From Candidatus Omnitrophota bacterium (GTDB taxonomy: Bacteria; Omnitrophota; Gorgyraeia; Gygaellales; Profunditerraquicolaceae), in assembly GCA_963805065.1 (NCBI GenBank), contig CAWDSS010000010.1:536359-600358 (forward strand): a stretch of DNA of 64,000 nt, in the 5' to 3' direction. Shown in pieces: positions 43,651-63,707 of the stretch. Below the pieces are notes generated by a model. The model ran no database searches, was not told where the DNA came from, and saw nothing but the letters and a program-made list of their open reading frames with translations. Position 1 is the first letter of the stretch. Each line of letters opens with the position of its first letter. A program made the translations under genes and the position numbers.

Positions 43651-43750
43651 CGATATTCGGCAACCCGGCTATCTTTTCTTGCTTGACTTGGAATCTCCAA
43701 GACCCGTGGCTTTGCGCCCCCTGATCACTCAGGGTTTACCTTTTCGATCC
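43651..43750 (-). promoter_or_regulatory. GEMM-I (c-di-GMP-I riboswitch)-like aptamer candidate in the giant-gene leader
   Basis: Minus-strand RNA GGAUCGAAAAGGUAAACCCUGAGUGAUCAGGGGGCGCAAAGCCACGGGUCUUGGAGAUUCCAAGUCAAGCAAGAAAAGAUAGCCGGGUUGCCGAAUAUCG. It has GGUAAAC, then a 6-bp hairpin with a GNRA loop (CCCUGA-GUGA-UCAGGG), then GCGCAAAGCC, a second hairpin, and AGCCGGGUUGCCGAAU. From memory, the Vc2/GEMM-I blocks are GGCAAAC ... GACGCAAAGCC ... AGCGGGGUUACCGAUGG. Confidence 0.5.
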
Positions 43751-43772
43751 CCTACTTTTCAATTGCATTTCA

Positions 43773-43801
43773 AGTATAACATTTCAATAATCCCTTGTCA
43801 A
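43773..43801 (-). promoter_or_regulatory. Sigma-70-type promoter of the giant gene
   Basis: Minus strand TTGACA (43796-43801), 17-nt spacer, TATACT (43773-43778), about 295 nt upstream of the ATG. Confidence 0.6.
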
Positions 43802-43852
43802 GCCGAAAGTTAGGAATTAAAGATAACGCTTTCTTATCCCCATCTTTTTACA

Positions 43853-43909
43853 GGGACACCCAATATTTCAAAGCAGGGACACCCTTGTTTCTGAAGCTAA
43901 AGGTGTCCC
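43853..43909. repeat. GGGACACCC REP-like element, type 1 (half-site plus hairpin)
   Basis: GGGACACCCAATATTTCAAAGCAGGGACACCCTTGTTTCTGAAGCTAAAGGTGTCCC. It is near-identical to 54795-54851. Confidence 0.8.
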
Positions 43910-43957
43910 CTCTACCCTAAAATCTAGTAGATTATCCTTACAAACCTAATTCTACAT

Positions 43958-43993
43958 AGGGACACCCTTCCGATTGATTTCGAGGGTGTCCCT
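43958..43993. repeat. GGGACACCC REP-like hairpin, type 2
   Basis: AGGGACACCCTTCCGATTGATTTCGAGGGTGTCCCT. It differs at one base from the copy at 56838-56873. Confidence 0.85.
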
Positions 43994-45046: not shown

Positions 45047-45895
45047 TTAGAAATCTATCTTACTGAATTGGATTATTAAAAAAATCCCCAATATCTGCAG
45101 GAAAGCAGCTGCCATCAAAAACATCCTGCCGACATCGCTTTGCAGCATAATATCAAAATGATGCCTGTTTATCGTAAGCACCCATCCGATAAACGCAATG
45201 GGTAATACCGACATGACTACGCCCTGAATCTTTCCCTGAAGAGTCAAGGTGGTTATCTGGTCTCTGAGTTTACGTTTAGCCCTCATGGTTTCGGCAAGCC
45301 TAGAAAATACCTTGGTAAGGTCGCCTCCTGTTTCGCGCGCCACAAGTATGGAACTTACCATCAGCTCAAGGTCATCAGATTGGGTGCGTTTATTTAGGCG
45401 GGCAAGACTCTCCTCCAGGGGAATCCCTACCTTGTTCTCCCTTAAAACCAGGCTGAATTCCTGGTTAAGGGGTGGAGGCATTTCTTCCACTACAACTTCC
45501 ATGGCCTGCAATAAAGATAGGCCTCCTTTTAATGCCGAGGAAAGCGTCATCAGCGCATCTACAAGCTGGTTTTGAAACTTTTTCTTACGCGTCACTTCGA
45601 TTCTCTTGATTATAACCTCAGGCAAAATAAAACCTGCGGCCATGCCGATTAATACGAAGGCTATCTTATTAAAAATAAAAAAAGCTGCTGCTGCCAAAAT
45701 AACCGGGCTTAGGGTATAATATAAAAAGAGCTTGCTGGTGGGAACCATCACGAACATATCTTCCAGCTGGGTCTCTGCCTGGCTTACCTTCTTTCTCTGG
45801 GCGCGGTGAAATTTATTGGTAAGAAAAGGCACCAGCTGGCTGCCAATCAAACCTACCGAAGCAAACATAAATATCAATATGATTAGTTTAAGCAT
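45047..45895 (-). CDS. tadB: Tad/Flp pilus inner-membrane platform protein TadB (T2SS-F family)
   Basis: 282 aa. LVDALMTLSSALKGGLSLLQAMEVVVEEMPPPLNQEF ... LMVSSILVARETGGDLTKVFSRLAETMRAKRKL. TM helices at both ends. Confidence 0.8.
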   Translation of the reverse strand: MLKLIILIFMFASVGLIGSQLVPFLTNKFHRAQRKKVSQAETQLEDMFVMVPTSKLFLYYTLSPVILAAAAFFIFNKIAFVLIGMAAGFILPEVIIKRIEVTRKKKFQNQLVDALMTLSSALKGGLSLLQAMEVVVEEMPPPLNQEFSLVLRENKVGIPLEESLARLNKRTQSDDLELMVSSILVARETGGDLTKVFSRLAETMRAKRKLRDQITTLTLQGKIQGVVMSVLPIAFIGWVLTINRHHFDIMLQSDVGRMFLMAAAFLQILGIFLIIQFSKIDF

Positions 45896-45910: not shown

Positions 45911-46132
45911 CTACTCGAACCTGCCGCAGGGAATGAGGTTTCCTGCGGAATCATAACATTTGGTGCCGGTCGGATAATACTGCCTGCCGTGGCCGAATGT
46001 ATCTCCCACATCACGCCACCTGCCGGTTATCGCCCTCCTTAAATAAACTGACATGGCAAGCAATGCAGCTACGATTATTGCGATTAACACTGCGTACTCT
46101 AATGAACTAAAGGCCTTGCGTATATTAATCAC
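45911..46132 (-). CDS. Flp/pseudopilin-like small protein
   Basis: The N-terminus MINIRKAFSSLEYAVLIAIIVAALLAMSVYLRRAITGRWRD shares the xSxLEY + hydrophobic helix + Y-x-(K/R)R motif with the pilin paralogues at 50.7-52.8 kb. Confidence 0.55.
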   Translation of the reverse strand: MINIRKAFSSLEYAVLIAIIVAALLAMSVYLRRAITGRWRDVGDTFGHGRQYYPTGTKCYDSAGNLIPCGRFE

Positions 46133-46583: not shown

Positions 46584-49415
46584 TTAGTGCGTTCCAGACA
46601 AAGACACGTCTGTAGCCGTATAGCTAGCGCGGCTCGTGCGTTTAATGGTAGTTGTCGGCCCGGCAACAGGACTCCAGATTAAACCCAGGTTAGCCGAGCC
46701 AGAATGAGTAAGCGCCGTTCCCGCAGGGTCAGTTCGGGTAATTTCTATCCAGGTGTTTTTGGAATCTTTGTCCCACCAAAGTTTCTGGCACTTCTTACCC
46801 CTAAGCCAGTTTCCCGAAGAAGTCTTGTGTAAATAAGGGAACAAAAATGCCCCGGTTTCCACCCTCACAGAATGTTCTCCTTCAGTATCCTTCCAGCTGT
46901 ATTCTACTGCTCCTTTTCCATCTTTAGCGCGATTATCCGGAGAGCTTATCAAGACATCGTTAAACTGCTGTAATTCCGGAAGAAAAGCATTGATACTCTG
47001 AATTTCATCTGTCAGTGTATCTAAAACCGGCTGAAATTCATCTTGGTTATCTTGGTCTATGGTAGCAAAGGTATCATCAGATGCGCCATTGTAAGTAAGG
47101 TTGCTGATGTAATTTTGCAACGCTGTTAGGCGGCTATTAAAAGTGGCTGGGGCTGTTGCTGGTATATTCAGATCAGGCGCGGCAATACTACGGCTTACAG
47201 TGCCCCTGCCTGACCCGGGGTATGTTGTTGTGGTGGTTGTGGTAGTGGTGCAACCAGCGTTGCCAGTTTGAATGCAGCTGCAAGTCCACCAGCCGTAAGG
47301 ATTCCAAATGCAAGGAGACGCGCAACAGGGTGAAGTCGGGGCGCATACACTGCCATATACAGGCCATGCGCCTGTGCCATCAGGAGCAGGACGCGTAGTG
47401 CCTGCCACTGATAGAGTTCCACATGAAATTGGGGTGGTCGTGCTTGTAGTACAAGTGCAAGTATATGTATATGACACATCCCAACTCATTGTTCCAGAAC
47501 CAGGGGGGCCCAACGGCGTGGTACTACAACCGCTATGAATAGGGCTGGTTAGTCCCACGCTATTTATACTGGTTATTGCAATACTGCCAACAGAACATGT
47601 GCCGGGATAAGGACAGGAAGCTGCAGAATAGCCTGTAGTGGGCGGGCTTAAGTAGTTACTTCCGGCAACAGCTATCTCATTAAGCAGGATAGATTTGTCT
47701 GACGGATAAACTTTACATATAGGATTGGGGAAATAGGGACCGGTAATGCTTGTTCCGGTCAGCCTCCAATTACAGGAATAATCACTATCATTGCAAGAAT
47801 ATTCTGCTGCACTTTCTTCTTTATAAACAGTGGTGCTACCCGTGTTATATGCCAACTGGCAACCCGGCAAACTATTCCTTACCCTAGTAATCTGGTCTTT
47901 CCAATCATTCATCCAAGTAGCAATTCCTGCTAACATATTGTAGTGATCCATTGTCGTAGCTGTATGATGCGAGTAATACAGGTTATCAAACCAGTCCCAA
48001 TCATCAGAGCCTCCGCTGGGATATCTTTGCTTTAACTGTTGGCTCAATTGATTTGCGTCATATTTATAAAAGCCGCAGGAATCCGGCTTTAATATGTCTT
48101 TTGCGTCTTTAAGGAAATCTTCGTAATGCATGCGGGCGTAATCATAATCATCCAAGCTTGATGGCAGGTCAGGGCAATCAGTATCGCTGTTTTCATTACA
48201 ATTATAATAAGCATCGAGGTCGGCTTGTGTAGGGCCGGGTATGTAGAAAATAGCATACCCGCAATGCGCAATAGCGTCCAACAGACGGGTCATCGGAGAC
48301 TCTGAGCCTAAATAATACGCGGACGTGCCGGAACCCATTGCGACCTCTGGACCGCAAGAACATTCTATTTCTTTTCTATCCATCTGCTTAATGAAATCCG
48401 AAGCCTGCTCATAAAATGGAATCAGGGAATTAGTTAAGAAATTATTTACCAAATCCTTGAGATTGGTAATTGAGTTTTGCAGGTTCTGCAGATGATTATA
48501 CCACCAATAATCAAAACAGCGAGTCCTTTCAGCGGTTATGCCGTCGTGGTCTAAATCCAGGGGGTCTCCTCCGGAAACTACGACCGAGGAATCATTCCAG
48601 GTAACCCAGTTGCCGTCAGAGGAAGTCCAGCCAACTGAGGTATTTTCACCACAAGTAACGTCTTTGGAAAGATTAGTCATAGTCGGGTCATCCACCACCT
48701 GATTAAGCGCATAGAGAAATATCCCTTCCCTGGCAGCTTCATATTCAGGCAAGCCGTTTAACATCTTATTTAATGTAGACATATTCTGGCTATTTATTGC
48801 TGCCTTGTTACTTGCGTTATAAGCAATGGCTCCTGTGCCAACTGTCCCTGTTGCAGCTGAAGCTACAGCTACTACATCGCCTATTGATATACTGGACAAT
48901 TCTCCTGATGCTAAACCAGCAAATTCCTTTGCTGCAAACTCGGACCCTCCAAAAAAAGCGCTTGCCGCAGCAAACCCCTGCAGCGCTCCCATTCCAGCCC
49001 CATTTACTCCTTGCACAATCATGTTTCCAATGGCTCCTGCAGCTGTAACTAAACCGAAAAATCCTACCCATCCCCATAAGCCTGCTGGCGGACAGCAAAT
49101 TGTTAAAACTAATGCTACTATGAAAGCAAGCACAACGCCTAATAATCCACTCCTGCTGCATTTGCTATAGCTATTACCCAATGCCACATAGAGATAATGA
49201 GCTTTAGAAGCAAGCGTGCTTCCTAAATAAAGCGCAGTAGAATCAGCTGCATTGGCAACTGTGGTTGCCCTATAAGAAACAGTGCCCAGGTTAAGCGTAA
49301 CCAAAATAAACACTATCACCGCCACCATTATCAGTATAAGTATAGTGGCGATTTGGCCTCCAGCCGCCTGTATTTGGAGGTTGCGTAACGAAGATATTCT
49401 CTTTAAATAAATCAT
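46584..49415 (-). CDS. TadG-like large pilus-associated protein with a Cys/Thr-rich C-terminal half
   Basis: 943 aa. The N-terminal GGQIATILILIMVAVIVFILVTLNLGTV resembles the TadE/G-like anchor. A Gly-rich hydrophobic block follows (GLWGWVGFFGLVTAAGAIGNMIVQGVNGAGMGALQGFAAASAFFGG). The C-terminal half has many Cys and a T9 run (CTTTTTTTTTYPGSG, about 47215-47260). Confidence 0.6.
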   Translation of the reverse strand: MIYLKRISSLRNLQIQAAGGQIATILILIMVAVIVFILVTLNLGTVSYRATTVANAADSTALYLGSTLASKAHYLYVALGNSYSKCSRSGLLGVVLAFIVALVLTICCPPAGLWGWVGFFGLVTAAGAIGNMIVQGVNGAGMGALQGFAAASAFFGGSEFAAKEFAGLASGELSSISIGDVVAVASAATGTVGTGAIAYNASNKAAINSQNMSTLNKMLNGLPEYEAAREGIFLYALNQVVDDPTMTNLSKDVTCGENTSVGWTSSDGNWVTWNDSSVVVSGGDPLDLDHDGITAERTRCFDYWWYNHLQNLQNSITNLKDLVNNFLTNSLIPFYEQASDFIKQMDRKEIECSCGPEVAMGSGTSAYYLGSESPMTRLLDAIAHCGYAIFYIPGPTQADLDAYYNCNENSDTDCPDLPSSLDDYDYARMHYEDFLKDAKDILKPDSCGFYKYDANQLSQQLKQRYPSGGSDDWDWFDNLYYSHHTATTMDHYNMLAGIATWMNDWKDQITRVRNSLPGCQLAYNTGSTTVYKEESAAEYSCNDSDYSCNWRLTGTSITGPYFPNPICKVYPSDKSILLNEIAVAGSNYLSPPTTGYSAASCPYPGTCSVGSIAITSINSVGLTSPIHSGCSTTPLGPPGSGTMSWDVSYTYTCTCTTSTTTPISCGTLSVAGTTRPAPDGTGAWPVYGSVCAPTSPCCASPCIWNPYGWWTCSCIQTGNAGCTTTTTTTTTYPGSGRGTVSRSIAAPDLNIPATAPATFNSRLTALQNYISNLTYNGASDDTFATIDQDNQDEFQPVLDTLTDEIQSINAFLPELQQFNDVLISSPDNRAKDGKGAVEYSWKDTEGEHSVRVETGAFLFPYLHKTSSGNWLRGKKCQKLWWDKDSKNTWIEITRTDPAGTALTHSGSANLGLIWSPVAGPTTTIKRTSRASYTATDVSLSGTH

Positions 49416-49431: not shown

Positions 49432-49692
49432 CTAAAAATTCTTGAAAAAATCTAAATTTGCCAACTCATCTTCATTAACCTCTACTGTCCAGTTGGTCGC
49501 AGTATCTGCTGCTATTTCCCGGCCACATTCAGGGCTGCTTTCATAATACTGCTGGCGGATGACCAGTCGGTTATTCACATAAAGGAATATTGCCACTGCT
49601 GCCCAAAAAAGAAGCAGCACGATGACCATGGCAAAAGCGAATTCTAAAGTTACCTGGCCGTTACCAGGGTGTTTCCTGGGTCTGTTTTTCAT
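49432..49692 (-). CDS. TadE-like minor pilin
   Basis: 86 aa. GNGQVTLEFAFAMVIVLLLFWAAVAIFLY matches the TadE-like N-terminal motif. Confidence 0.6.
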   Translation of the reverse strand: MKNRPRKHPGNGQVTLEFAFAMVIVLLLFWAAVAIFLYVNNRLVIRQQYYESSPECGREIAADTATNWTVEVNEDELANLDFFKNF

Positions 49693-50743
49693 TCCTGTTC
49701 TCGGTATTGGTTATAGGAGTCTCGGTAACTGTACTAGTTCCATAATGCCTGAACACAATCATCCTGATATTGCTATAATTTTGGCTTAAGGTATCGGTTG
49801 TAGTTATGCCTGTAGTTGCCTCCTGTTTCCTTAATGTGTTATTCTTTATATGGGTATCTGTGTAATCCTGCTGCACACCCATGCTCTTTAAATTGTTGGC
49901 AGCAACACTAAAAAGATTATCTAACTCACTTCCGCAATACCAGGGAATCTCAATATCGGGGCTGCAGAGTTGGGAACAATTGGTTCCTGACTCAAGCTGG
50001 CATTCTTTTACGCAAAAATTCTTGTCGGTTATAGTGTTGCACTGCCTCTTACAACCGCTATAATCCAAAATTTCTCCTTCGCAGGAATCAATAACCTTTA
50101 TAGAGCTTAATGTATTCCAATTTGGATCTTTTTGGTCCCAGTTGCTTCCACCGGAAGTTAACCCTTGCATATTTTGAGCAGTGTATATCAATGCATATTT
50201 TTGCCACCTGCGTTCTTTTTCGCAATTGTCAGTGGTCCCTATGGCAATATTGCGGAACCCCGCAGTAAGATAATAACAGGGAGGATTACTTCCCGGCGGC
50301 GAAAGCCGGCAATTGTTTCTACACGCACTATCATTAGCTGCGCAAGTCCCACAAGCTACCGCTCCGTCTGGCCCGCCGCTGCCAGGACAAGTGCTGCCTT
50401 TAATATCAATTGCCATTGCTGGCAATTCATCAATATAATCTGCGGTTTCATTCATTGTATAATTACGTATAACAGAGGCAGCGGAATTTGCGGGGATAAA
50501 AGAACCCTGCCCAAAGGCATCGCTGGGATCGGGTATGTGCCTATCGCTTATATATATGTAGCTGGCTGTTCCTTTTTGCTTGGCGAGTATTAATGCCCTT
50601 CTAAATGTTTGCTGCGTTATCTGTTGCAGGTAATTATTTTTTAGGCCGTAAGAAAGGAGGGCTGCGATAAAGGCTATTAACAGGGCTCCTAAGATGGAAA
50701 TTTCCAATAATGATTGCGCCTTTTTTTTCCTATGAATTAGCAT
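49661..50743 (-). CDS. Pseudopilin-like protein with a large Cys-rich domain (TadF/minor-pilin candidate)
   Basis: 360 aa. The N-terminus is KKKAQSLLEISILGALLIAFIAALL. About 15 Cys are spread through the C-terminal 250 aa. Confidence 0.5.
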   Translation of the reverse strand: MLIHRKKKAQSLLEISILGALLIAFIAALLSYGLKNNYLQQITQQTFRRALILAKQKGTASYIYISDRHIPDPSDAFGQGSFIPANSAASVIRNYTMNETADYIDELPAMAIDIKGSTCPGSGGPDGAVACGTCAANDSACRNNCRLSPPGSNPPCYYLTAGFRNIAIGTTDNCEKERRWQKYALIYTAQNMQGLTSGGSNWDQKDPNWNTLSSIKVIDSCEGEILDYSGCKRQCNTITDKNFCVKECQLESGTNCSQLCSPDIEIPWYCGSELDNLFSVAANNLKSMGVQQDYTDTHIKNNTLRKQEATTGITTTDTLSQNYSNIRMIVFRHYGTSTVTETPITNTENRNEKQTQETPW

Positions 50744-50756
50744 CGCTTAACAACTC

Positions 50757-51134
50757 TTACGGTAATGGCCCAACATCCTCCCAGCCGTTCTGTCTTGTAT
50801 TATCATGACTGGAAACAGTATCTGTGGTCCTTAGCCTTCCCCCTACTTCATTAGTAGTGGCGCTGGAAGTGCTTGTACTGTTCGATGTAATGGTGATATC
50901 GGAAGTTGTGTTTTTTGGTTCGTAGGAATTGCCAATCTGATCGGCACTATCTCGGTAATTGCCCTGGAAGCTTCTTTTTATATATGAGGACATGCTTATG
51001 AGTGCAGCTACAAACACTGCTATGACCACGGCATATTCCAAAGCTGATTGCGCTTTGCTTAATTTAATAAGTCTTGTCTCTGTCTGAATGCGATTGGTCA
51101 TGCGGCACATCGCCTTGTGACGCCTGGTTAACAT
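50757..51134 (-). CDS. Flp-like pilin paralogue (start uncertain; the track start overlaps the upstream gene by 71 nt)
   Basis: LSKAQSALEYAVVIAVFVAALISMSSYIKRSFQGNYRDSADQIGNSY followed by an S/T-rich tail. Confidence 0.6.
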   Translation of the reverse strand: MLTRRHKAMCRMTNRIQTETRLIKLSKAQSALEYAVVIAVFVAALISMSSYIKRSFQGNYRDSADQIGNSYEPKNTTSDITITSNSTSTSSATTNEVGGRLRTTDTVSSHDNTRQNGWEDVGPLP

Positions 51135-51411
51135 CCGTTCTATAACTTCCGTCTACAAAACTTCTTTTTCTTGTGACCCCGGAGCTGCTGCCAGTTTGAG
51201 AAGATTCATCTATCCATACACCATCCTTAGCCGTCTCGTTAGCATCTTCCTGGCTGCCTACCTGGTCCGCTGCTACTCTTACTACTGCCTGAATCCCGCG
51301 CTTCATGTAAACCTGCATGCCAACGAGAACAGCACTGACAATTGCGATTAGTATAACATATTCCGCTATACTTTGTCCACTATAAAGATGTCGTAATTCC
51401 TTGCTTTCCAT
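51064..51411 (-). CDS. Flp-like pilin paralogue
   Basis: SGQSIAEYVILIAIVSAVLVGMQVYMKRGIQAVVRVAADQVGSQ. Confidence 0.65.
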   Translation of the reverse strand: MESKELRHLYSGQSIAEYVILIAIVSAVLVGMQVYMKRGIQAVVRVAADQVGSQEDANETAKDGVWIDESSQTGSSSGVTRKRSFVDGSYRTDVNQASQGDVPHDQSHSDRDKTY

Positions 51412-51453
51412 GATCTTTTCGCGAATTTGCCAGTGCTGCCCCCTATTAGCTTT

Positions 51454-51777
51454 TTACGGATACCACTCCTGATCCAAAGCACCCACGTTCTCACTGGTAT
51501 TCTTATTTTGAGCCTGATTCGTGACCACGTTAGTTGTTGACCCTGGTCCTCCTGATATGGTTTCTACAGAATGACCCTGCGTTATACTTGTAAGAGAAGT
51601 ACTTGATGTGGTCTGAGGAGAAAACTGATCGCCAATATCATTGGATGAATCTCTTAGTTTACCCTGAACACCACGTTTAATATAACTGGACATAGCAATT
51701 AATGCAGCTACGATTACTGCAATAACTACAGCATATTCAAGCGTATTCTGCCCTTTTTTATTTAAATGAATAAACAT
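51454..51777 (-). CDS. Flp-like pilin paralogue (start moved to the ATG at 51777)
   Basis: GGAGGTG lies 6 nt before the ATG. MFIHLNKKGQNTLEYAVVIAVIVAALIAMSSYIKRGVQGKLRDSSNDIGDQF. The track start at 51786 is a GTG inside the SD. Confidence 0.7.
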   Translation of the reverse strand: MFIHLNKKGQNTLEYAVVIAVIVAALIAMSSYIKRGVQGKLRDSSNDIGDQFSPQTTSSTSLTSITQGHSVETISGGPGSTTNVVTNQAQNKNTSENVGALDQEWYP

Positions 51778-51807
51778 TACTTTCACCTCCTTAGATTAAA
51801 CTTTTAT

Positions 51808-52134
51808 TTACGGCGTTGCAGTCATAGTCTGGTTACGATTAGCTGTTGTATCCATGTTGGAACCCCTGGTTGTTGCTCCGCCTAAACTTACATTTTCATT
51901 CTGGCTTCCAGTCTGATCAGTTGTGGTAGTGCCAGTAAGATAATACGGTTCGTATTGTTTGGTGTCTGTGGTAGTCGCCATACCCGAACCCATATTGTCT
52001 ACCACGTCCTTAACCTTTCCCTGTAACCCTCTTTTTACATATATCTGCATTGCTGTAACTGCAGCTACTACTAAAGCAATTAAGATTGCGTATTCAGCGG
52101 TGGTTTGTGCCCTTTTACCAATTTTACGTAACAT
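51808..52134 (-). CDS. Flp-like pilin paralogue (start moved to the ATG at 52134)
   Basis: GGAGGTG lies 6 nt before the ATG. MLRKIGKRAQTTAEYAILIALVVAAVTAMQIYVKRGLQGKVKDVVDNMGSG. Confidence 0.7.
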   Translation of the reverse strand: MLRKIGKRAQTTAEYAILIALVVAAVTAMQIYVKRGLQGKVKDVVDNMGSGMATTTDTKQYEPYYLTGTTTTDQTGSQNENVSLGGATTRGSNMDTTANRNQTMTATP

Positions 52135-52149
52135 TCGTCTCACCTCCTT

Positions 52150-52314
52150 TTAGAAATTTATTTTCTGTGCTTCATTATTCATCTGCGTTGCCGCGTTTTC
52201 TAATGAGCTCTGGACCTTAGGCTTCAAGAAATTGTTAGCGAAGATGATTATTACTGCGATAATCGCGGTCAAGATAATCACGTACTCTAATACACTTTGT
52301 CCCTTCTTGTTCAT
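52150..52314 (-). CDS. Short Flp pilin (54 aa; start moved to the ATG at 52314)
   Basis: GAGGAGGTGA lies 4 nt before the ATG. MNKKGQSVLEYVIILTAIIAVIIIFANNFLKPKVQSSLENAATQMNNEAQKINF. Its size and G-QSVLEY motif are typical of a mature-pilin precursor. Confidence 0.7.
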   Translation of the reverse strand: MNKKGQSVLEYVIILTAIIAVIIIFANNFLKPKVQSSLENAATQMNNEAQKINF

Positions 52315-52378
52315 TTTGTCACCTCCTCTCATATTTATGCTCAATAAATATCTACCCATCTATCACCTCCTTCAATAA

Positions 52379-52537
52379 TTACTGTATCGATTCTACATTG
52401 GTCTGTTGCTGGATCATTAATAAGTTTGCGTATATTGAACGCCTTACATATAGGCTTATCGCCATTATAGCCGCTAAAACAATGGTAATAAGCAAGCTGT
52501 ACTCCAACACACTCTGGCCTTTATATTTTCTTATCAT
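52379..52537 (-). CDS. Short Flp pilin (52 aa) absent from the ORF track
   Basis: The ATG at 52537 lies one base after the TAA of the upstream gene, and AAGGTG precedes it. Hand translation: MIRKYKGQSVLEYSLLITIVLAAIMAISLYVRRSIYANLLMIQQQTNVESIQ, stop at 52379-52381. Confidence 0.65.
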   Translation of the reverse strand: MIRKYKGQSVLEYSLLITIVLAAIMAISLYVRRSIYANLLMIQQQTNVESIQ

Positions 52538-52538
52538 C

Positions 52539-52754
52539 TTACCACACCTTGTTATCAGCGTTAATTATGGCATCAAACCCTTTTTGAGCATAACCTGGTG
52601 TTGCGGAAGTGCCTTGCGCTGTATCTCTCACGCTTCCAAAAAAGCTATTTATCGTACCGCCTAATGTAAGCAAGGTTAAAAAAATCACCGCTGTAAAAAG
52701 TAAAAAATACTCTAAAGTAGCTTGCCCTCTTTTTAAAGACTTTTTTAAAATCAT
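52539..52754 (-). CDS. Flp-like pilin paralogue, first gene of the pilin operon
   Basis: GAGGAG lies 6 nt before the ATG. MILKKSLKRGQATLEYFLLFTAVIFLTLLTLGG. Confidence 0.7.
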   Translation of the reverse strand: MILKKSLKRGQATLEYFLLFTAVIFLTLLTLGGTINSFFGSVRDTAQGTSATPGYAQKGFDAIINADNKVW

Positions 52755-52795
52755 TATTAACTCCTCAAAAAATAAACCGAGTCACACGAATCTCT

Positions 52796-52950
52796 AACGG
52801 CATTCGCTAACCCGGTTAACTTACTCGCTTAGACCCAAAAACAAAAATAAAAACTTTTTTTCCGGCGAGCATATCCCGTGGCTTTGCGCATCCACTTACC
52901 TCCATAAGTGAGATGCTCCCTCCGTAACCCGGAGGAATTTCGCTGCCGTT
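52796..52950 (-). promoter_or_regulatory. Leader RNA of the pilin operon sharing GEMM-I-like blocks with the giant-gene leader
   Basis: Minus RNA has a closing stem AACGGCA...UGCCGUU. Inside it are the hairpin CCUCCG-GGUUA-CGGAGG, an extra hairpin CACUUA-UGGAGG-UAAGUG, then UGCGCAAAGCCACGGG and later AACCGGGUUAGCGAAUG. The two blocks GCGCAAAGCCACGGG and CCGGGUU-CGAAU also occur in the giant-gene leader. Confidence 0.35.
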
Positions 52951-52974
52951 ATTTATATCTTTAATGACACTTAA

Positions 52975-53003
52975 AATATAACATCTATAACATCAAGTGT
53001 CAA
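52975..53003 (-). promoter_or_regulatory. Sigma-70-type promoter of the pilin operon
   Basis: Minus strand TTGACA (52998-53003), 17-nt spacer, TATATT (52975-52980). Confidence 0.6.
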
Positions 53004-53033: not shown

Positions 53034-54707
53034 CTAAACTGCAAACCAGAGCCTTAATTTCTGGGAGGTTAAAATTTCCCTTTCGTTCAATCTGCGGCAG
53101 GCATACTCAAGATCTTTTAATAATGGGAACCCCTGTGGTGGTTTGAAAGTTATCCTTAACCCATCTTTTTCTTGGCTTATATCAGTGGTTAGTTTGTAAA
53201 AGTGTTCTTTTGTGAAGGCAAAATCCTTATTTTCATATCCCACGGGTAAAAAGTGCCATCTTACATATAAGTCTAATGCTTCCAGATAGTTACTGAATAG
53301 AATCCCGCTTTCAGGGTTGGTTTCTTTCTCTAATTTAAGTATTTCTGTAGAAAAAAACCTGCCAGAAGCACCGGTATATGTGAAAAGTTCAATTTTTCGG
53401 CTGTAGTCATGGAATGCCTCTTCAAAATTCGGCCAGTGGCTTAGATATGCATTTAGCCATTGAGAAGCAGGTGCATCATCAACAAAATTAGTCAAAACAA
53501 TTAATCTTGTTTTCTCGGTCAAATTTGTTTTTAAAGCATTGCCTCTAAACGTAACATGTTGACTTGTATTTGGTTGTGTTAACTCAATTTCGATTTCTGC
53601 AGCATATATTTCTTTGCCCAGCGGTTCTGCAAAAAATGGCTTAAATTCCCCTATCTTTTTCACTTTTCTATACTCTACGAACTGCCAAGGCCATAACCCG
53701 AAGACAAAATATTGCTTTTTATCCTGGTTTATAGAAAGGCGCTCCAATTCATCAAAATTACTGTCACAAAGAGTCAGTTGTGTAATTTTCTTTGCCGTAG
53801 AATCAAAACTTAAGATAAAACTAAAGAACTCTTTGGTAGGAGCATCATATCCCGGCGCCATGAACAGCAAAAAAGGAGAATTATCCCGAAAATATCTATT
53901 TATGTAACTCTTGATATCATAAATAGTTGTGGAAAAATCGTGAGGGATATGCGGCGTGGACCAAATTGTATGTAACTGTCCATCTAAATACATGATGCTG
54001 CCATCAGACATATTGACTTTAACACAGCGCACTTCCTGCAGTGTGCTGGATATTATGCGTAATAGATCTAAAGGAATTGATTTAACTGATTGCAATTCAT
54101 TGAGATAAGCTACGATGGTTTCAGCGGGTATTTCCTGGCCTGCTAAGGGATATGCAATGCTTTTTGGCGCTTCTTTAGCACCTTGGAACAAACCAAGATA
54201 AATAAGGCTTTCTGTCTTAGCTAAAAAGTCCTCGTTCGGCCGGTTGAGCCTGGCTTTGATAGCGTCGGAAAAGTAGTAGCTGCCGCCAATAAGGTAATCA
54301 GCTGCCTTAAGTAAGATAGCGCCTGTACAGGCTATCTTTTTAGGCTCTTGAGCCTTAATTTCGACGAGTGGTTCTGCAACCTTAATGGGCTTTGGCTGGG
54401 GCTCTGGAACCGGAATCACTGGCGCAGGCGCTTCAGGCTTAATTTCTACCGGTACTTCAAGCAACTTCGGTTCCTGTGGTTTTTCCAGCATAACTACAGG
54501 CTTACGCCTCTTTTTTTGCCTCCTTCCCACCGGCAGGCTTAACCCCTGTTGCTTTATAATTGAATTTATGCTGGATTTAGAGAGTTTTATCTGAAATTTC
54601 TCTTCTACCAAGGCAGTCATACCGCGACAGCTTAGGATTGGCTTGGTTTTTTTCTCCTCTAAAATGAAATCTATTATTTCCGGCTTTAATTTGTAAATTA
54701 CGCCCAT
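53034..54707 (-). CDS. HTH-domain protein, possibly transposase-like or a regulator (start moved to the ATG at 54707)
   Basis: GGAG lies 5 nt before the ATG. The N-terminus MGVIYKLKPEIIDFILEEKKTKPILSCRGMTALVEEKFQIKLSKSSINSIIKQQGLS looks like an HTH. A K/P/E-rich linker and a roughly 430-aa unrecognised domain follow. The track start at 54755 would lie inside the predicted promoter. Confidence 0.6.
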   Translation of the reverse strand: MGVIYKLKPEIIDFILEEKKTKPILSCRGMTALVEEKFQIKLSKSSINSIIKQQGLSLPVGRRQKKRRKPVVMLEKPQEPKLLEVPVEIKPEAPAPVIPVPEPQPKPIKVAEPLVEIKAQEPKKIACTGAILLKAADYLIGGSYYFSDAIKARLNRPNEDFLAKTESLIYLGLFQGAKEAPKSIAYPLAGQEIPAETIVAYLNELQSVKSIPLDLLRIISSTLQEVRCVKVNMSDGSIMYLDGQLHTIWSTPHIPHDFSTTIYDIKSYINRYFRDNSPFLLFMAPGYDAPTKEFFSFILSFDSTAKKITQLTLCDSNFDELERLSINQDKKQYFVFGLWPWQFVEYRKVKKIGEFKPFFAEPLGKEIYAAEIEIELTQPNTSQHVTFRGNALKTNLTEKTRLIVLTNFVDDAPASQWLNAYLSHWPNFEEAFHDYSRKIELFTYTGASGRFFSTEILKLEKETNPESGILFSNYLEALDLYVRWHFLPVGYENKDFAFTKEHFYKLTTDISQEKDGLRITFKPPQGFPLLKDLEYACRRLNEREILTSQKLRLWFAV

Positions 54708-54743
54708 TTTATCTCCAGATTGGACATTTATAATCTCAATACA

Positions 54744-54772
54744 AATATAACACACATAGAATAAGCTGTCAA
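54744..54772 (-). promoter_or_regulatory. Sigma-70-type promoter of the HTH gene, flanked by AGATTGGACATTT copies
   Basis: Minus strand TTGACA (54767-54772), 17-nt spacer, TATATT (54744-54749). The 13-mer copies at 54717-54729 and 54780-54792 bracket it. Confidence 0.55.
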
Positions 54773-54794
54773 GTAATTTAGATTGGACATTTTA

Positions 54795-54851
54795 GGGACA
54801 CCCAATATTTCAAAGCAGGGACACCCTTGTTTTTGAAGCAAAGGGTGTCCC
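54795..54851. repeat. GGGACACCC REP-like element, type 1
   Basis: GGGACACCCAATATTTCAAAGCAGGGACACCCTTGTTTTTGAAGCAAAGGGTGTCCC. The hairpin arms lie at 54818-54826 and 54843-54851. Confidence 0.85.
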
Positions 54852-54859
54852 TCACCCCA

Positions 54860-56340
54860 AACGAAAAAATCTTTGTTAGAAATAGTGACCTGATACGTCT
54901 GTTATGTTAGAGAGTGTCAAACTTTATTACATGATAGACCTGCCAGCTTTTAGAGCCTTTTAACTTTCTGTTATGCGTGGCATGCCGAAATTTCGGCATC
55001 GCACTATTTAATTTTGCGTTTGGAGCCTAGGGGTCCCTATCTATTATCGAGCCTTATAGCTCTGACGTACGACCGAGTCATCCCCAGAGGCAAGCGTTGC
55101 TTGTGGCTCTTAAGGCTTGGCATCTAAATATTAGCGATGTATTCACGCTGCTCTTTTAAAACTCTATAAATAATCAAGGTTAATTTACGCGCCACCGCGA
55201 CAATGGCTTTACGTGAGCCAACCTGAGGATGATGTTTAGCGCGTATGCGATCGTAGAATTGGCGCAGCCGTGCATCTTTGTTAATGTTCGCCCAGGCAGC
55301 TTCAACCAGTAAGGACCTAAGCACAGAGCTGCCTAAATGGGTGATACGACCTCGCAAGATTCGTTCTCCTGTTGAGTATTCACTAGGCACGAGTCCCGCA
55401 AAAGCAGATAACTCTCTGGGGTTACGCAACTGCTGTGGGTCACCAATGCTTGCAAGAATAGTTATAGCGGTAATAAAGCCTATGCCGGGAATAGAGCGAA
55501 GATAATGTATATTGCGTTTAAGGCTTGCATCTTGCTCAGAGAGCTTTTTAAGCTCTTTAAGGATTATCAAAGTTTGGTTACGTGAATACTCTAGGTCATT
55601 AAGGAGTAAATCTAATCTTTGGCGCGTAGCCGGGCTACAGGGTAGTTCTTTGAGTCGTTTAATATGTGCATAAGACCAATACTGGGTCGTATCTTTTAAT
55701 AGTGTGTGCAGATGGGCAAAAAGTAGAAGCGATTTGATGCGTTGTTTGCTTACTTTACGCATATCGACATATTCTTCACGCGAACGAAGCAGCTGGCGCA
55801 GCTCCCGGCAATCGTAATCCGGGATACGAATAGGTTGCATATCGCCGTTCTTTAAATGCTGGGAGATTCTCTCTGAATCAAGGCGGTTATTCTTGATACG
55901 ATCATTACTGGCTTTGGGGATTGATGGAGGCGGTACCATTAAACACCTTATGTTTTTTGATGTTAAATAATCATGCAGATAATAACCAGTTACTCCGACT
56001 TCATAAGCGCAGATAACCCTTTTATTATTATACCTGTTGCGTATATGTTGGTAAAGATTTTCCGGATTAGCCGGTATTTTGTGCGAGTTGTTCATGGTAT
56101 CGTGATTTTTGACGGTAAATGAGAAGCTTTTCTGATCAACGTCTATGCCTATGAAAATATCGTACTCGTTGGGGCTGTACGCCATGCTTTCCTCCTGGTT
56201 AAACGGTTAAACTATTTACCTTTAGTTTACACCATATTTTGGAAAGCTCGGCACTCTAAACATATTATCTATTATAGTAAAGGCAAAAGTAAAAAGCCAA
56301 AAGGAAAAAGTTAGGGCTAAGTCAAAAATAAGAGGAGGTG
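54860..56340 (-). mobile_element. IS110-family insertion sequence (ends not determined)
   Basis: A single DEDD transposase gene has about 260 nt of structured non-coding sequence downstream and about 160 nt upstream. IS110-family elements lack classical terminal inverted repeats, so the boundaries cannot be read off. Confidence 0.5.
55124..56185 (-). CDS. IS110-family (DEDD) transposase/recombinase
   Basis: 353 aa. N-terminal IFIGIDVDQKSFSF (RuvC-like DEDD). C-terminal LRSIPGIGFITAITILASIGDPQQLRNPRELSAFAGLVPSEYSTGE...GRITHLGSSVLRSLLVEAAW, typical of the IS116/IS110/IS902 family. Confidence 0.85.
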   Translation of the reverse strand: MAYSPNEYDIFIGIDVDQKSFSFTVKNHDTMNNSHKIPANPENLYQHIRNRYNNKRVICAYEVGVTGYYLHDYLTSKNIRCLMVPPPSIPKASNDRIKNNRLDSERISQHLKNGDMQPIRIPDYDCRELRQLLRSREEYVDMRKVSKQRIKSLLLFAHLHTLLKDTTQYWSYAHIKRLKELPCSPATRQRLDLLLNDLEYSRNQTLIILKELKKLSEQDASLKRNIHYLRSIPGIGFITAITILASIGDPQQLRNPRELSAFAGLVPSEYSTGERILRGRITHLGSSVLRSLLVEAAWANINKDARLRQFYDRIRAKHHPQVGSRKAIVAVARKLTLIIYRVLKEQREYIANI

Positions 56341-56346: not shown

Positions 56347-56829
56347 ATGCCTAGAGGTGCACGATTATTTGTAAATAATGCCTATTATCATATTGTCAAT
56401 CGCGGAAATCAAAAAGAGAAAATATTCATAGAACCCCCCGATTTTGAAAAATACCTACAGCTGTTAAAACACTACAAACGTAAATACGCTTTCGAAATCT
56501 TTGGCTATTGCCTCATGCCTAATCATGTTCACATAGTATTAGGGGCTAAAGCGGCGCATAAGTTGCCAAAGTTTATGCAAAGCTTGACTCAAACATACAC
56601 TATGTGGTTCAATGGCAAATATAATAAAGTTGGCCATCTTTGGCAGGGAAGATTCAAATGCATGATTATTCAAAGAGATGAATATTTTCTGGAAAGTATA
56701 TATTATGTTGAGGCTAATCCTGTAAGAGCCGGTATGGTTCATTCTCCTAAAGATTATGTTTGGAGTAGCTATAAAGACAGGATCTTCGGTAATAGAAACG
56801 GTTTGTTAGATCTGCCTGATTCAACCTAA
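56347..56829 (+). CDS. REP-associated tyrosine (Y1, HUH) transposase, RayT/IS200-like
   Basis: 160 aa. HUH motif in GYCLMPNHVHIVL. Tyr region SIYYVEANPVRAGMVHSPKDYVWSSY. AGGAGGTG SD. GGGACACCC hairpins lie immediately downstream. Confidence 0.8.
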   Translation: MPRGARLFVNNAYYHIVNRGNQKEKIFIEPPDFEKYLQLLKHYKRKYAFEIFGYCLMPNHVHIVLGAKAAHKLPKFMQSLTQTYTMWFNGKYNKVGHLWQGRFKCMIIQRDEYFLESIYYVEANPVRAGMVHSPKDYVWSSYKDRIFGNRNGLLDLPDST

Positions 56830-56837: not shown

Positions 56838-56873
56838 AGGGACACCCTTCCGATTGATTTCAAGGGTGTCCCT
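56838..56873. repeat. GGGACACCC REP-like hairpin, type 2
   Basis: AGGGACACCCTTCCGATTGATTTCAAGGGTGTCCCT, 9 nt after the RayT stop. Confidence 0.85.
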
Positions 56874-56881
56874 TGATTGAA

Positions 56882-57238
56882 TTATTGGGTGTCCCTATTT
56901 ACAAAGAGAATCTCGTCACCTGCGGAAGTATGATGGGTTTCTATTGTGCCTGCGGGAAGTTCGATAGCTAACTGAGAGCTAAAATATATTGGGGTAAGGT
57001 GAAAGGGCATTATGGAGGAAACGGCTTTTACCACGCGGTTATGTTTATCCAAGAATAATACATCAATGGGAAAACGCATAAACAAGGTATGAATTGAATT
57101 GCAGGGGTCCAATATCAAAGCTTGCCCTTTAAGAAATTTTTTCCTGCCTAAAAGGCCCCTCATCCTGGTAAGTGGGTTATTCGCCACTACAGCATTATCT
57201 GCCAAGATATTATTGTTGGTTTTATTAATGACCTGCAC
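56882..57238 (-). CDS. DUF192 (COG1430) family protein
   Basis: 118 aa. NNPLTRMRGLLGRKKFLKGQALILDPCNSIHTLFMRFPIDVLFLDKHNRVV ... AIELPAGT matches the DUF192 pattern. Confidence 0.7.
   Translation of the reverse strand: MQVINKTNNNILADNAVVANNPLTRMRGLLGRKKFLKGQALILDPCNSIHTLFMRFPIDVLFLDKHNRVVKAVSSIMPFHLTPIYFSSQLAIELPAGTIETHHTSAGDEILFVNRDTQ
56887..56895. repeat. Isolated GGGTGTCCC half-site overlapping the 3' end of the DUF192 gene
   Basis: TATTGGGTGTCCCTATT. On the minus strand it encodes the last residues ...NRDTQ and the stop of ORF 56882-57238. Confidence 0.8.
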
Positions 57239-57240
57239 GG

Positions 57241-59403
57241 TTAGCTGGCTTTGAAGATGTCCTGATTAAGCGGAATATTACGAACCTTTATTTCTTCTAT
57301 GAAGGAAGGCACGTATCCGGTAGCCTGAAAATCTCCCAGGACTTTACCCTGGCTATCAATGCCTTTTTGTTTGAATAAAAAGATGTCGCGCAGGTCCACG
57401 TGCGTTTCATCTTTCATGCCGCAGAGCTCGGTTATCTGTATAATCTTACGGCTTCCGTCGGAAAGCCTGGAGGTATGGATAATCATGTCCACGGCTGAAG
57501 CAATCATCTCGCGTATTGACCTTAGGGGAAGATCGACTCCTGCCATAAGAATCAGGGAATCCATCCTCATTAAAACATCCTGGGTAGAGTTGGCATGAAG
57601 CGTGGTCATGGAACCGTCGTGCCCTGTGTTCATTGCCTGAAGCATATCCAGAGTCTCATTGCCGCGGCACTCTCCGATGATTATCCTATCAGGCCGCATC
57701 CTTAATGTATTCCTGAACAACTCCCTCATGGTAATTGCACCTTTGCCTTCTATGTTTGAAGGCCTAGATTCCAACCGCACCCAATGCTCCTGGCTCAGCT
57801 TCAACTCTGCCGCGTCCTCAATGGTTACTATGCGCTCGTTTTCAGGTATAAAGGAAGACAGTACGTTTAACATTGTGGTCTTTCCTGAACCGGTAGCGCC
57901 CGATATAATAATATTTTGCCTGGACAAAACACAGGCCTTAAGGAATTCCCCCATCTGCTGGTTTAAAGTATTTAACCTGACTGCTTCCTCTACGGTAAAT
58001 CTTTCTTTTTTGAATTTTCTTATGGTTAGCGTGGGCCCGGTCAAAGAAAGCGGGGGTATTATGGCATTTACGCGTGAGCCATCAGGTAACCGTGCATCTA
58101 CCATGGGCACCGACTCATCAATATGCCTGCCGATAGGGGCAATAATGCGTTCTATAATCGTCTTTACCTGCTCGTTAGTAATGAATCTCTTTTTGGTAAG
58201 TTCAATTTTTCCGTTACGCTCAACATAAATTTCATCTTTATTATTAACCATGATATCGTTTATTTCCGGGTCGGCGATTAAATCTTCTAATGGCCCCAGG
58301 CCCAATGCTTCATCCAGGATATCTTTAATCAGCTTCTTTCTCACTTCTGAAGATGAGATAAAACTACCTGACTCCTCTGCCAGTAAATTAGAGACGATGA
58401 CCTCGGCTTTCTCTTTCAGTTCTTTTGCCTTTTCTGCATCGGTGAATACTGCAAGGTCCAGCCGTTTTATGTTAAGCTCTTCTATGAGCCTGCTGTGAAT
58501 TTTACGTTTAAGCAAAAGCGTTTCATCTACCTCTTCCTGCGAAGGCATTAATTCAGACAAAGGGCTGGTCATGCCTAAAAGCTGCCAGAATTTTCCTGAC
58601 TTATCTACTAAGCCCGCTTCTTTTAAACGCAGCTCATCTATTTCCTGGCGCGCCATAAACAACTTATCATTGCGGGTTAATTCACGGACAAAATTCTTTA
58701 TACTTAAGGAGACTTTTGTCCTGGGGTTATCTATAACAACAGGAATCCCCCTGTTTACAGCCTGGCCCACCACTTTACCCTCAGAGGGGATATGGGCAAT
58801 TATATCTATGGGCAGGCTCCCCTTGACCTCTCTCCAGTTAATGCTCGACGCTGACTCTGACCTATTGAGGATGACTTTTACCATGCTGATGGGAAAATGC
58901 AGGAATTGCAGCGTATCCATAACCCATTTGGTTTGATAAATAGAGAGGATATCCGGCGTAACGACTAATAGTATCAGGTTGGCCTGATTTAAAACAGCAA
59001 CGCATGTTTCACTAAATCCCTTTCCGGCATCTACAATTATATAATCATAATATTTATCCAGTAAATTAAATACGTCTTTTATCTTGAAGGCGTCTAGATG
59101 CGGGGCTTGCTGGGGGTTAGATACACCCGCCAGGAAATCTATGCCTAAAGGAGAGCTTTTGGTCAGGTAATCATCTTTCTTAATATTTTCCGGAGATGTC
59201 TTAAGATGGTATATTAAATCCGCCATGGACTTCTGCGGCTTTAAATCCAGCATCCTGGCTATGTCTCCTACCGCCAGCACGTCCAAATCTATGAGGCAGA
59301 CTCTCCAGGAGAAATCCCGGGCTAAACTAACAGCAATGTTTGTGGCAAGCAGGGTTTTACCTACTCCGCCTTTTGTGCTAAAGATTATTATTCTTCTAGC
59401 CAT
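57241..59403 (-). CDS. cpaF: Fusion of a TadZ/CpaE-like ParA/MinD ATPase domain with the CpaF/TadA secretion ATPase
   Basis: 720 aa. N-terminal RRIIIFSTKGGVGKTLLATNIAVSLA (deviant Walker A). C-terminal T2SS-E core IIISGATGSGKTTMLNVL, IVTIEDAAEL and RMRPDRIIIGECRGNETLDMLQAMNTGHDGSMTTLHAN. Confidence 0.85.
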   Translation of the reverse strand: MARRIIIFSTKGGVGKTLLATNIAVSLARDFSWRVCLIDLDVLAVGDIARMLDLKPQKSMADLIYHLKTSPENIKKDDYLTKSSPLGIDFLAGVSNPQQAPHLDAFKIKDVFNLLDKYYDYIIVDAGKGFSETCVAVLNQANLILLVVTPDILSIYQTKWVMDTLQFLHFPISMVKVILNRSESASSINWREVKGSLPIDIIAHIPSEGKVVGQAVNRGIPVVIDNPRTKVSLSIKNFVRELTRNDKLFMARQEIDELRLKEAGLVDKSGKFWQLLGMTSPLSELMPSQEEVDETLLLKRKIHSRLIEELNIKRLDLAVFTDAEKAKELKEKAEVIVSNLLAEESGSFISSSEVRKKLIKDILDEALGLGPLEDLIADPEINDIMVNNKDEIYVERNGKIELTKKRFITNEQVKTIIERIIAPIGRHIDESVPMVDARLPDGSRVNAIIPPLSLTGPTLTIRKFKKERFTVEEAVRLNTLNQQMGEFLKACVLSRQNIIISGATGSGKTTMLNVLSSFIPENERIVTIEDAAELKLSQEHWVRLESRPSNIEGKGAITMRELFRNTLRMRPDRIIIGECRGNETLDMLQAMNTGHDGSMTTLHANSTQDVLMRMDSLILMAGVDLPLRSIREMIASAVDMIIHTSRLSDGSRKIIQITELCGMKDETHVDLRDIFLFKQKGIDSQGKVLGDFQATGYVPSFIEEIKVRNIPLNQDIFKAS

Positions 59404-63688: not shown

Positions 63689-63707
63689 AAAAGTCGGTAC
63701 TATGTAA

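Follow-up and report, generated by a model that had tools for sequence, protein, structure and literature searches.

Fixed classes of Flp-like prepilin genes and an apparent cyclic di-GMP riboswitch in a Tad-type locus of an Omnitrophota bacterium

The closest described systems to the Flp-type prepilin gene array treated here are the bacterial Tad and Kil pili and the archaeal Epd pili. The array lies in a 64,000-nt stretch of a Candidatus Omnitrophota genome (assembly GCA_963805065.1, contig CAWDSS010000010.1, positions 536,359 to 600,358 of the forward strand), hereafter the window. Classical Tad/Flp systems are those of Aggregatibacter, Caulobacter and Pseudomonas, with the genes flp-tadV-rcpCAB-tadZABCDEFG, one to three Flp genes and single-helix pilins of about 40–60 amino acids (aa) in mature form. 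The Kil pilus of Myxococcus xanthus contains 15 pilins, the major pilin KilP and 14 minor ones, including the Flp-type adapters KilK and KilO (PMC12075869). Its tips are Cys-rich KilL/M/N trimers with pilins of three sizes (short, extended and very large); the locus lacks a gene for the peptidase of the major pilin, an enzyme not yet known, and the system is associated with predation (PMC12075869). Epd pili of methanogens are encoded in one locus with a major pilin and several minor ones (PMC4858521).

Omnitrophota are widespread, uncultured, ultra-small bacteria, thought to be predators or parasites; a Tad-like locus and a giant gene are their main candidate machinery for interaction with hosts. 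Tad complexes are reported for the phylum, including an expressed one in V. archaeovorus, and linked to predation; RcpA of Velamenicoccia groups with RcpA of predatory Myxococcota, and TadB/C with those of Bdellovibrionales (Seymour et al. 2023, PMC10066038). A conserved system of more than 10 subunits, resembling a type II secretion system (T2SS), lies upstream of the giant genes (West-Roberts et al. 2023, bioRxiv 10.1101/2023.11.21.568195). One sentence of that preprint mentions the small class III signal genes, and a 2026 preprint repeats the flank pattern of the giant genes. The existence of the array is already on record, without analysis. In West-Roberts et al. and Seymour et al. the small genes and their order, and the conserved genes p573 and DUF192, are not classified. 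Apparently new against the searchable literature are the fixed, ordered pilin classes and the apparent cyclic di-GMP (c-di-GMP) riboswitch before the array.

Seven consecutive small genes on the minus strand (50757-52754) and an eighth (45911-46132) form the pilin set. All eight open reading frames (ORFs) of the original prediction are present at these positions, and its remark that Flp paralogues outnumber the classical one to three holds, with at least eight here. GGAGGTG-type ribosome-binding sites precede most pilin genes; starts corrected by them are 52314 (flp3), 52134 (flp4) and 51777 (flp5). Precursors of flp1 to flp8 then measure 71, 52, 54, 108, 107, 115, 114-125 and 73 aa. Two short pilins of 52-54 aa had been claimed; the array in fact contains three short genes (71, 52 and 54 aa) and four long ones.

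All eight genes are on the minus strand; a downward arrow marks the predicted cleavage site. flp1 (52539..52754) opens the array; leader MILKKSLKRG↓Q, mature part 61 aa, class QAxLEYFILF. flp2 (52379..52537) has a mature part of 45 aa and represents the short class QSvLEYAxLI..YVxRSxQANLK. flp3 (52150..52314) starts after GGAGGTG; mature part 49 aa, class QSxLEYVIvLTAIvA. flp4 (51808..52134), 99 aa when mature, belongs to a class with YVKRGxQ and QYEPYY and has an S/T-rich tail. flp5 (51454..51777), mature part 98 aa, belongs to the class YxKRGvQGkLR..DdIGdQFSP...ENVG..EW(W/Y)P. flp6 (51064..51411), mature part 103 aa, belongs to the class YMKRGiQ..ADQvGxQ and is without Pfam match. flp7 (50757..51134), mature part 97 aa, belongs to the class ..QGxxR..ADxIGxxY(E/D)P..TtSD; its start, overlapping the end of flp6, is ambiguous (51134, 51110 or 51101), and gene callers give 117 aa in L001 and L002. 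flp8 (45911..46132) has a GTG start, the junction RKA↓FSSLEY, 2 Cys and a mature part of 66 aa; class ..YLRRAIxGxWR..DxFGxGRQYxP. Mature flp1, flp2, flp3 and flp8 are thus 45-66 aa long, and flp4 to flp7 are 97-103 aa long with disordered tails.

A (G/A)-x4-E-Y processing motif stands at the leader-mature junction in 8/8 pilins, flp4, flp7 and flp8 having Ala where the others have Gly, and is followed by a hydrophobic stretch of about 20 residues. The first of two motifs proposed earlier is retained as (K/R/S)(G/A)-Q-x-x-x-E-Y, except that flp8 has F for Q; in the alignment of the eight paralogues only E and Y are invariant columns. Seven of the eight window pilins combine a basic leader with (G/A)↓Q at +1 and Glu at +5; the exception, flp8, has F at +1. 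Gln +1 and Glu +5 are at least 90% conserved among 141 sampled relatives. In the six-frame translation of the window the regular expression [GA]x4E[YF], followed by at least 10 hydrophobic residues, gives 9 matches, against a mean of 0.11 and a maximum of 1 in 200 codon shuffles. All 9 fall within the locus on the coding strand: the eight pilins and an 86-aa TadE-like protein.

The second motif, Y-x-(K/R)-R-(G/S)-x-Q-(G/A), had been assigned to all paralogues. It is complete in flp4 to flp7 only, partial in flp2 (YVRRSIYA) and flp8 (YLRRAITG), and absent from flp1 and flp3. This extended motif characterises the four long classes, not the array as a whole. Both example peptides given originally are correct and come from flp5 and flp4. 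An AlphaFold2 (AF2) model of flp5, built with 15 sequences, is a single helix of residues 10-51, with block-mean pLDDT (predicted local distance difference test) of 87-93 over residues 11-30 and a low-confidence, disordered tail. Since the helix spans 10-51, Y-x-KR-G-x-Q-G forms the C-terminal half of the single pilin helix. Tails contain 29-48% S+T+N. N-x-S/T sequons are not enriched in them (1.69 per 100 aa, 1.57 expected).

Hidden Markov model (HMM) support, proposed earlier as a check with Flp and TadE models, is present but weak. No window pilin is at the Pfam gathering score: Class_IIIsignal (PF04021) gives 14-21 bits (best 21.0, cut-off 23.7), Flp_Fap (PF04964) 15.5-16.5 bits (cut-off 32.2) and Flp1_like 19 bits (cut-off 33.5). 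flp1 matches Class_IIIsignal at a sub-threshold E of 3.9e-4; flp3 has weak matches to Class_IIIsignal, Flp1_like and Flp_Fap. Among the 141 relatives, at E<0.01 for the first two families, 31 match Class_IIIsignal (best E 2.8e-7) and 25 Flp_Fap (best 3e-6); 4 match TadE. JGI annotation labels some homologues 'Flp pilus assembly pilin Flp', including two of flp3. The 26 homologues of flp5 are from Omnitrophica wherever named. Flp-like (type IVc / class III signal) prepilin identity, as originally predicted, is well supported by motif, single-helix model, Tad locus context and family-level HMM matches, though not by curated thresholds. Gln +1 with Glu +5 is the pattern reportedly described by Szabo et al. 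in 2007 for archaeal EppA-dependent pilins, the proteins from which PF04021 was built. The pattern fits the origin from an Epd-like archaeal system that has been inferred for Tad systems (PMC6668835). Like Epd pilins, the window pilins have Class_IIIsignal as best Pfam match, the sequence (K/R)(G/A)↓Q-x-(S/T)-x-E and short members; unlike Epd, the system is bacterial, diderm and equipped with a secretin, no EppA was found, and scores are below the gathering threshold.

The array is part of a Tad-type locus. Gene order, all on the minus strand: PPIase, RcpC, secretin, TadZ::CpaF, DUF192, p573, flp1-7, p360, TadE-like, TadG-like, p151, flp8, TadB, TadC. The PpiC-type peptidyl-prolyl isomerase (PPIase) is encoded at 61980-62951 and RcpC/CpaB at 61023-61979 (Pfam RcpC 83.3 bits). 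The secretin (59413-61017) has Secretin (134 bits), T2SS-T3SS_pil_N (47.7 bits) and C-terminal TonB_C (54.6 bits) domains; its best NCBIfam match is GspD. Fusion of a secretin to TonB_C is unusual and suggests anchoring to peptidoglycan or the inner membrane. The ATPase (57241-59403, 720 aa) has a T2SSE domain (223.7 bits) and N-terminal ParA/CbiA/AAA_31 matches, and scores 341 bits with the TadA family TIGR03819, under the cut-off of 373.15. A TadZ/CpaE-like ParA/MinD domain and a CpaF/TadA ATPase, normally two genes, are here one protein. TadB (45047-45895, 282 aa) and TadC (44175-45044, 289 aa) have one T2SSF domain each (80.6 and 60.5 bits). The locus contains a CpaF/TadA-family ATPase, two single-T2SSF platform proteins, a secretin with pilus N-domain and RcpC/CpaB, as expected of a Tad machine.

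Two further conserved genes stand between ATPase and array. DUF192 (COG1430; 56882-57238, minus strand) comes immediately after the ATPase gene in the window and in almost every related locus. p573 (53034-54755, minus strand, with its own promoter) encodes 573 aa: an N-terminal winged helix-turn-helix, a Pro-rich linker and a C-terminal domain of 430 aa. Its 428 homologues, from Omnitrophota only where named, are essentially without Pfam matches, and p573 is directly upstream of the array in 69/69 loci. The AF2 model of p573 (pLDDT 79.8) has a weak fold match to Tn5 transposase (Foldseek, E 2e-3); a DDE triad is not evidently conserved.

Three larger pseudopilin-like proteins are encoded on the minus strand downstream of flp7. 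p360 (49661-50743, 360 aa) begins with KKKA↓QSLLEI and a helix and has 15 Cys; it is class III-like at the N-terminus only and without Pfam domain. The TadE-like pseudopilin (49432-49692, 86 aa, GNG↓QVTLEF) scores 22.5 bits with Pfam TadE (cut-off 22.9, E 1.2e-4). The TadG-like pseudopilin (46584-49415, 943 aa, 29 Cys, Thr-rich) scores 22.0 bits with Pfam Tad (PF13400; cut-off 22.3) over residues 20-62. p360 is a candidate tip subunit and the 943-aa TadG-like protein a candidate tip adhesin. p151, a membrane-anchored protein of 151 aa, is encoded between the TadG-like gene and flp8.

With classical Tad/Flp systems the locus shares G/A-x4-E-Y before a hydrophobic helix, the single-helix pilin, the CpaF/TadA ATPase, split TadB/TadC, RcpC, an RcpA-type secretin, a TadZ-like ATPase and near-threshold TadE-/TadG-like pseudopilins. 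It differs in the number of Flp-type genes (eight against one to three), in the length of four mature pilins (about 100 aa), in a near-invariant Gln +1, in the lack of tadV from the locus, in the fusion of TadZ to CpaF, in TonB_C on the secretin, in gene order, in DUF192 and p573 as extra conserved members, and in pilins that do not reach the Pfam Flp_Fap threshold. Kil resembles it most closely as a functional analogue: the short TadE-like protein, p360 with 15 Cys and the TadG-like protein with 29 Cys match the pattern of the Kil tip, a likeness in architecture only. Like Kil, the locus has a large pilin repertoire and no linked peptidase gene. Kil pilins are scattered over several clusters with paralogous tip sets, whereas here distinct Flp classes form one tandem operon; no T3SS* partner is seen, and the giant gene occupies that position.

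The multi-pilin array is not peculiar to the window; it is the norm in Omnitrophota. Relatives were collected by a pattern scan of GTDB representative genomes, with 174 confirmed stretches, and the best 80 loci were analysed, almost all from Omnitrophota metagenome-assembled genomes (MAGs). Pilin-like ORFs number 647 in 81 loci, 6-13 in nearly every full-length locus. Annotated against the window proteins, the whole gene order, from PPIase through the N-terminus of the giant protein (p151 bracketed), is conserved across related loci. A flp gene directly precedes p360 in 55/58 loci, a flp-type ORF is directly upstream of tadB in 51/52, and the flp3, flp4 and flp5 types are consecutive in 64/77.

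Pilin classes were assigned from signature motifs, best-hit counts and adjacency counts, which were used because Louvain clustering of the 647 pilins split them by lineage as well as by type. A relative closer than the best window paralogue is found for flp4 in 77 of the 80 loci, flp3 in 69, flp6 in 64, flp2 in 52, flp5 in 44, flp8 in 29, flp1 in 18 and flp7 in 2; flp1 has no detectable paralogue in the window, and the nearest relative of flp7 is flp5 of the same window. Distant loci repeat one class order: F-rich QAxLEYFILF; one or two ..YVxRSxQANLK classes of about 45 aa; QSxLEYVIvLTAIvA; QYEPYY; ..IGdQFSP...EW(W/Y)P; ADQvGxQ; QYDP..TtSD; and, beside tadB, ..FGxGRQYxP. Ancient classes in fixed order imply non-redundant, long-kept roles, not rapidly turning-over cassettes. 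They favour one fibre with major and adapter or minor pilins, and argue against recent duplication or switchable cassettes.

Some loci carry additions. The flp3-flp4-flp5 triple occurs twice in L082 (8136-10330), and pilins of L010 (8571-9480) have Gly/Thr-repeat tails, TGGTTGGTTGGGYY; these blocks and tails show lineage-specific expansion on top of the conserved classes. L081 (JAIWAR010000014.1), filed as a 'Methanosarcinales archaeon' MAG, contains a complete Omnitrophota-type tad/pilin/giant locus, and other loci are filed as Planctomycetia, Deltaproteobacteria or Pseudomonadota. Mis-binning or mislabelling is the likely cause of such labels, perhaps affecting an epibiont together with its archaeal host. 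The short contig L001, from the same organism as the window, has other genes (PMT_2, GH92) downstream of the TadE-like gene and may represent a strain variant or a misassembly.

One strong sigma-70-like promoter (52975-53003, minus strand; TTGACA-17-TATATT with TG, 11/12 consensus positions) serves the array. No internal minus-strand terminator-like site and no invertible-repeat signal is present in the array, and the seven genes are predicted to be co-transcribed. Three near-identical promoters of this kind (TTGACA-17-TATAxT with TG) precede p573 (54744-54772), the array and the giant gene (43773-43801). An unusually stable fold is predicted for the array's 220-nt leader (z -4.3). A divergent c-di-GMP-I-type riboswitch aptamer (52798..52958, minus strand) is predicted in this 5' untranslated region (UTR). 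As in the c-di-GMP-I (GEMM-I) riboswitches of pilus and adhesion genes, the aptamer core is GG.AA...CGCAAAGCCACGGG...CCGGG.U.(C/G)CGAA and the platform is of terminator type. Compared with RF01051 (clan CL00126), P1b is shortened in the window copy, an additional 5' hairpin is present, the P2 loop contains an insertion of about 38 nt, and the score is sub-threshold.

Same-position elements in L058 (47.7 bits) and L024 (36.6 bits) pass the RF01051 gathering score. A covariance model, R1, was built from the leaders of 13 relatives, the window excluded, and replaced a poor MAFFT alignment with two Rfam matches; it scores the window leader at 74.2 bits (E 3e-15). R1 has 35 matches in related loci, every one in coding orientation: 24 lie between p573 and the first flp gene (12 of these absent from the training data), 9 precede the giant gene, and 2 were left unclassified by the automatic labels (in L023 near the array start, in L070 downstream of the ATPase). 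A terminator hairpin with U-run (approximately 52765..52828, minus strand) overlaps the 3' strand of the aptamer and is the predicted expression platform; it has a 16-bp stem followed by UUUAUUUUUU, at -19.4 kcal/mol and z -3.2.

The giant gene has an element of its own. A c-di-GMP-I-GGC riboswitch (43651-43756, minus strand) lies between the third promoter and the giant ORF; RF03167 scores 63.6 bits (gathering score 59; match 43655-43749), and a competing terminator-like hairpin is present. Rfam also finds this riboswitch in L073 and L046, and the same element precedes the giant genes of L046, L073, L064, L049, L044, L076, L060, L050 and L081. Each of the two window elements has an aptamer whose 3' strand can pair, alternatively, with a segment further downstream, giving a hairpin and U-run. 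With terminator-type platforms, both are predicted ON switches. Two such switches would co-induce pilins and giant protein at high levels of the ligand, presumably c-di-GMP. The word riboswitch is absent from the two preprints on Omnitrophota giant genes, and no paper linking Omnitrophota to c-di-GMP riboswitches was found in the searchable literature.

The giant ORF (3-43487, minus strand) is directly downstream of tadC and runs off the window start after 14,495 stop-free codons. Translated from its likely ATG at 43478, the protein is 14,492 aa long or more and carries a transmembrane segment at the N-terminus. A Pfam scan over these 14,492 aa detects only a methyltransferase domain (about 22953-23171). 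A homologue of the giant N-terminus follows tadC in at least 23/49 loci, a lower bound, as loci end at 10 kb.

The reading preferred here, with a probability of roughly 0.65, is a Tad/Kil-like pilus: a shaft of one short class, the other classes as adapters, minor pilins or decorations, a tip of large pseudopilins, and co-induction with the giant protein by way of a c-di-GMP riboswitch. On this reading the products of the eight genes are Flp-like prepilins of type IV (class III signal), components of a Tad/Kil-like (type IVc) pilus specific to Omnitrophota; they represent anciently diverged classes in fixed gene order rather than redundant copies. An A24 prepilin peptidase encoded elsewhere would cut the basic leader after G/A, leaving Gln +1 and Glu +5 on a long hydrophobic helix. 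The TadZ::CpaF ATPase and the TadB/TadC platform would polymerise the pilins through the RcpC-secretin channel. The shaft is probably built from one short class; the others are probably adapter or minor pilins or shaft decorations, and the four long ones would expose disordered S/T/N-rich tails on the fibre surface. The Cys-rich p360 with the TadE-like and TadG-like proteins may form the tip. Starting from the array's own promoter, a c-di-GMP-I-type riboswitch with terminator platform would make the array inducible by c-di-GMP. Since a sister riboswitch precedes the giant gene, joint induction of the pilus and the giant surface protein is proposed, serving attachment to cells of a host or prey; a link to predation is presumed.

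Several points weigh against this reading. No A24 peptidase is encoded in the window or in the 80 related loci (1.27 Mb). All window pilins fall short of the curated Pfam and NCBIfam thresholds, and NCBIfam gave nothing meaningful. Searching PDB sequences with a profile of the flp5 family finds no pilin, only chance avidin matches at E of at least 0.04. Four of the eight pilins are about twice the classical Flp size. The RF01051 score of the array-UTR element is 16.1 bits (E 0.5-0.9; 52803-52910), against a gathering score of 35. The sequence does not single out a major pilin.

The missing peptidase had been noted in the original prediction, and its absence from the window is borne out by Pfam or NCBIfam scans of every sizeable ORF and of the whole giant ORF in three segments. 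No window ORF matches Peptidase_A24, and a regular expression for the A24 active site gave nothing. In the 1.27 Mb of related loci the expression G.GD[..]K has one match, a false one in a non-membrane protein; unannotated ORFs with several transmembrane segments, taken as peptidase candidates, proved to be TatC, ABC permeases, DUF6580 and PMT_2. The terms tadV, pilD and flp are absent from the accessible part of the supplements of Seymour et al. (PMC10066038).

Considerably less probable than the pilus, but the strongest competitor, is an account in which the pilins are endopilins of a T2SS-like machine: they would build a short piston in the periplasm that drives the giant protein or glycoside hydrolases through the secretin, without any long adhesive fibre outside the cell. 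Endopili of T2SS, too, have one major and four minor pseudopilins. It agrees also with GspD as best NCBIfam match of the secretin, with the giant-like ORF after tadC, with the sister riboswitches on pilin array and giant gene, and with the naming of the locus by West-Roberts et al. as a T2SS-like secretion system conserved upstream of giant genes. The machine, however, is of Tad type (split TadB/TadC, CpaF/TadA-family ATPase, RcpC, TadZ-like domain); homologues of GspC, GspL, GspM and GspG-K are absent among the window ORFs scanned with Pfam and NCBIfam; and as a folded T2SS substrate, a protein of at least 14,000 aa that has a transmembrane segment at its N-terminus is unlikely.

More speculative, and somewhat less probable still, is an extension of the pilus reading: eight pilin classes, three tip pseudopilins and the giant protein may form a single c-di-GMP-gated attack organelle, specific to Omnitrophota and controlled by the twin riboswitches. 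In that case the pilins with long tails would make up a coat that binds glycans or proteins, or else a track for anchoring or deploying the giant protein on host cells. Maturation of the prepilins would fall to a non-canonical or distant peptidase, as about 80 genomes have none linked to the locus.

A switchable fibre is improbable. Alternative major pilins, used one at a time or in changing ratios, would alter host range or provide escape from phages and grazers. The many paralogues with divergent, surface-exposed tails, the extra copies and duplicated blocks of some loci (such as the doubled triple of L082) and the transposase-like p573, always adjacent, speak for it. Ancient classes in phylum-wide order are the opposite of fast-evolving cassettes, however; the array has a single promoter and neither internal terminators nor invertible-repeat signals, and the DDE triad of p573 is not evidently conserved. 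Of the two fibres proposed originally, heteropolymeric or switchable, a fibre of several pilins fits best, and the switchable one is disfavoured by the same ancient classes, fixed order and single promoter. Least probable are small secreted or membrane-anchored class III signal proteins without filament (like the bindosome subunits of Sulfolobus) or released substrates: disordered S/T-rich tails, a conserved C-terminal ..EW(W/Y)P in one class and sub-threshold HMM support would suit them, but conservation falls precisely on the helix by which pilins polymerise, with Glu +5; short classes are almost nothing but helix; and the locus has three larger pseudopilin-like partners of the kind typical for priming complexes of pili.

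The pilin set of the locus is a fixed, ordered group of about eight Flp classes with a candidate three-protein tip, in logic resembling Kil, and pilin operon and giant gene both appear to lie behind c-di-GMP riboswitches. These findings offer concrete hypotheses for enrichments such as that of V. archaeovorus: on the major pilin, on the trigger of assembly and on joint deployment of pilus and giant protein. The known range of pilin complexity in Tad systems, and of riboswitch-controlled pili, would be broadened.

Minor features of the window are the following. A tRNA-Glu(CUC) gene (63707-63783, minus strand) adjoins the gene of a polytopic membrane protein of 134 aa (63284-63688, minus strand), which matches no family and, with no Pfam match, is not an A24 peptidase. 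An IS110-family transposase gene (55124-56185, minus strand) and a gene for a REP-associated tyrosine transposase (RAYT; 56347-56829, plus strand) are inserted between DUF192 and p573; they are specific to the window and absent from related loci. Ten exact copies of AGGGACACCC, hairpin-forming and in both orientations, where about 1.6 are expected by chance, form three intergenic clusters: at 43852-43993 upstream of the giant-gene promoter, at 54794-54852 upstream of the p573 promoter, and at 56838-56896 beside the RAYT gene. The same sequence is recorded in L059 (4968-6058) and L007 (173-231). The copies could be REP/REPIN elements of the RAYT, or operator sites.

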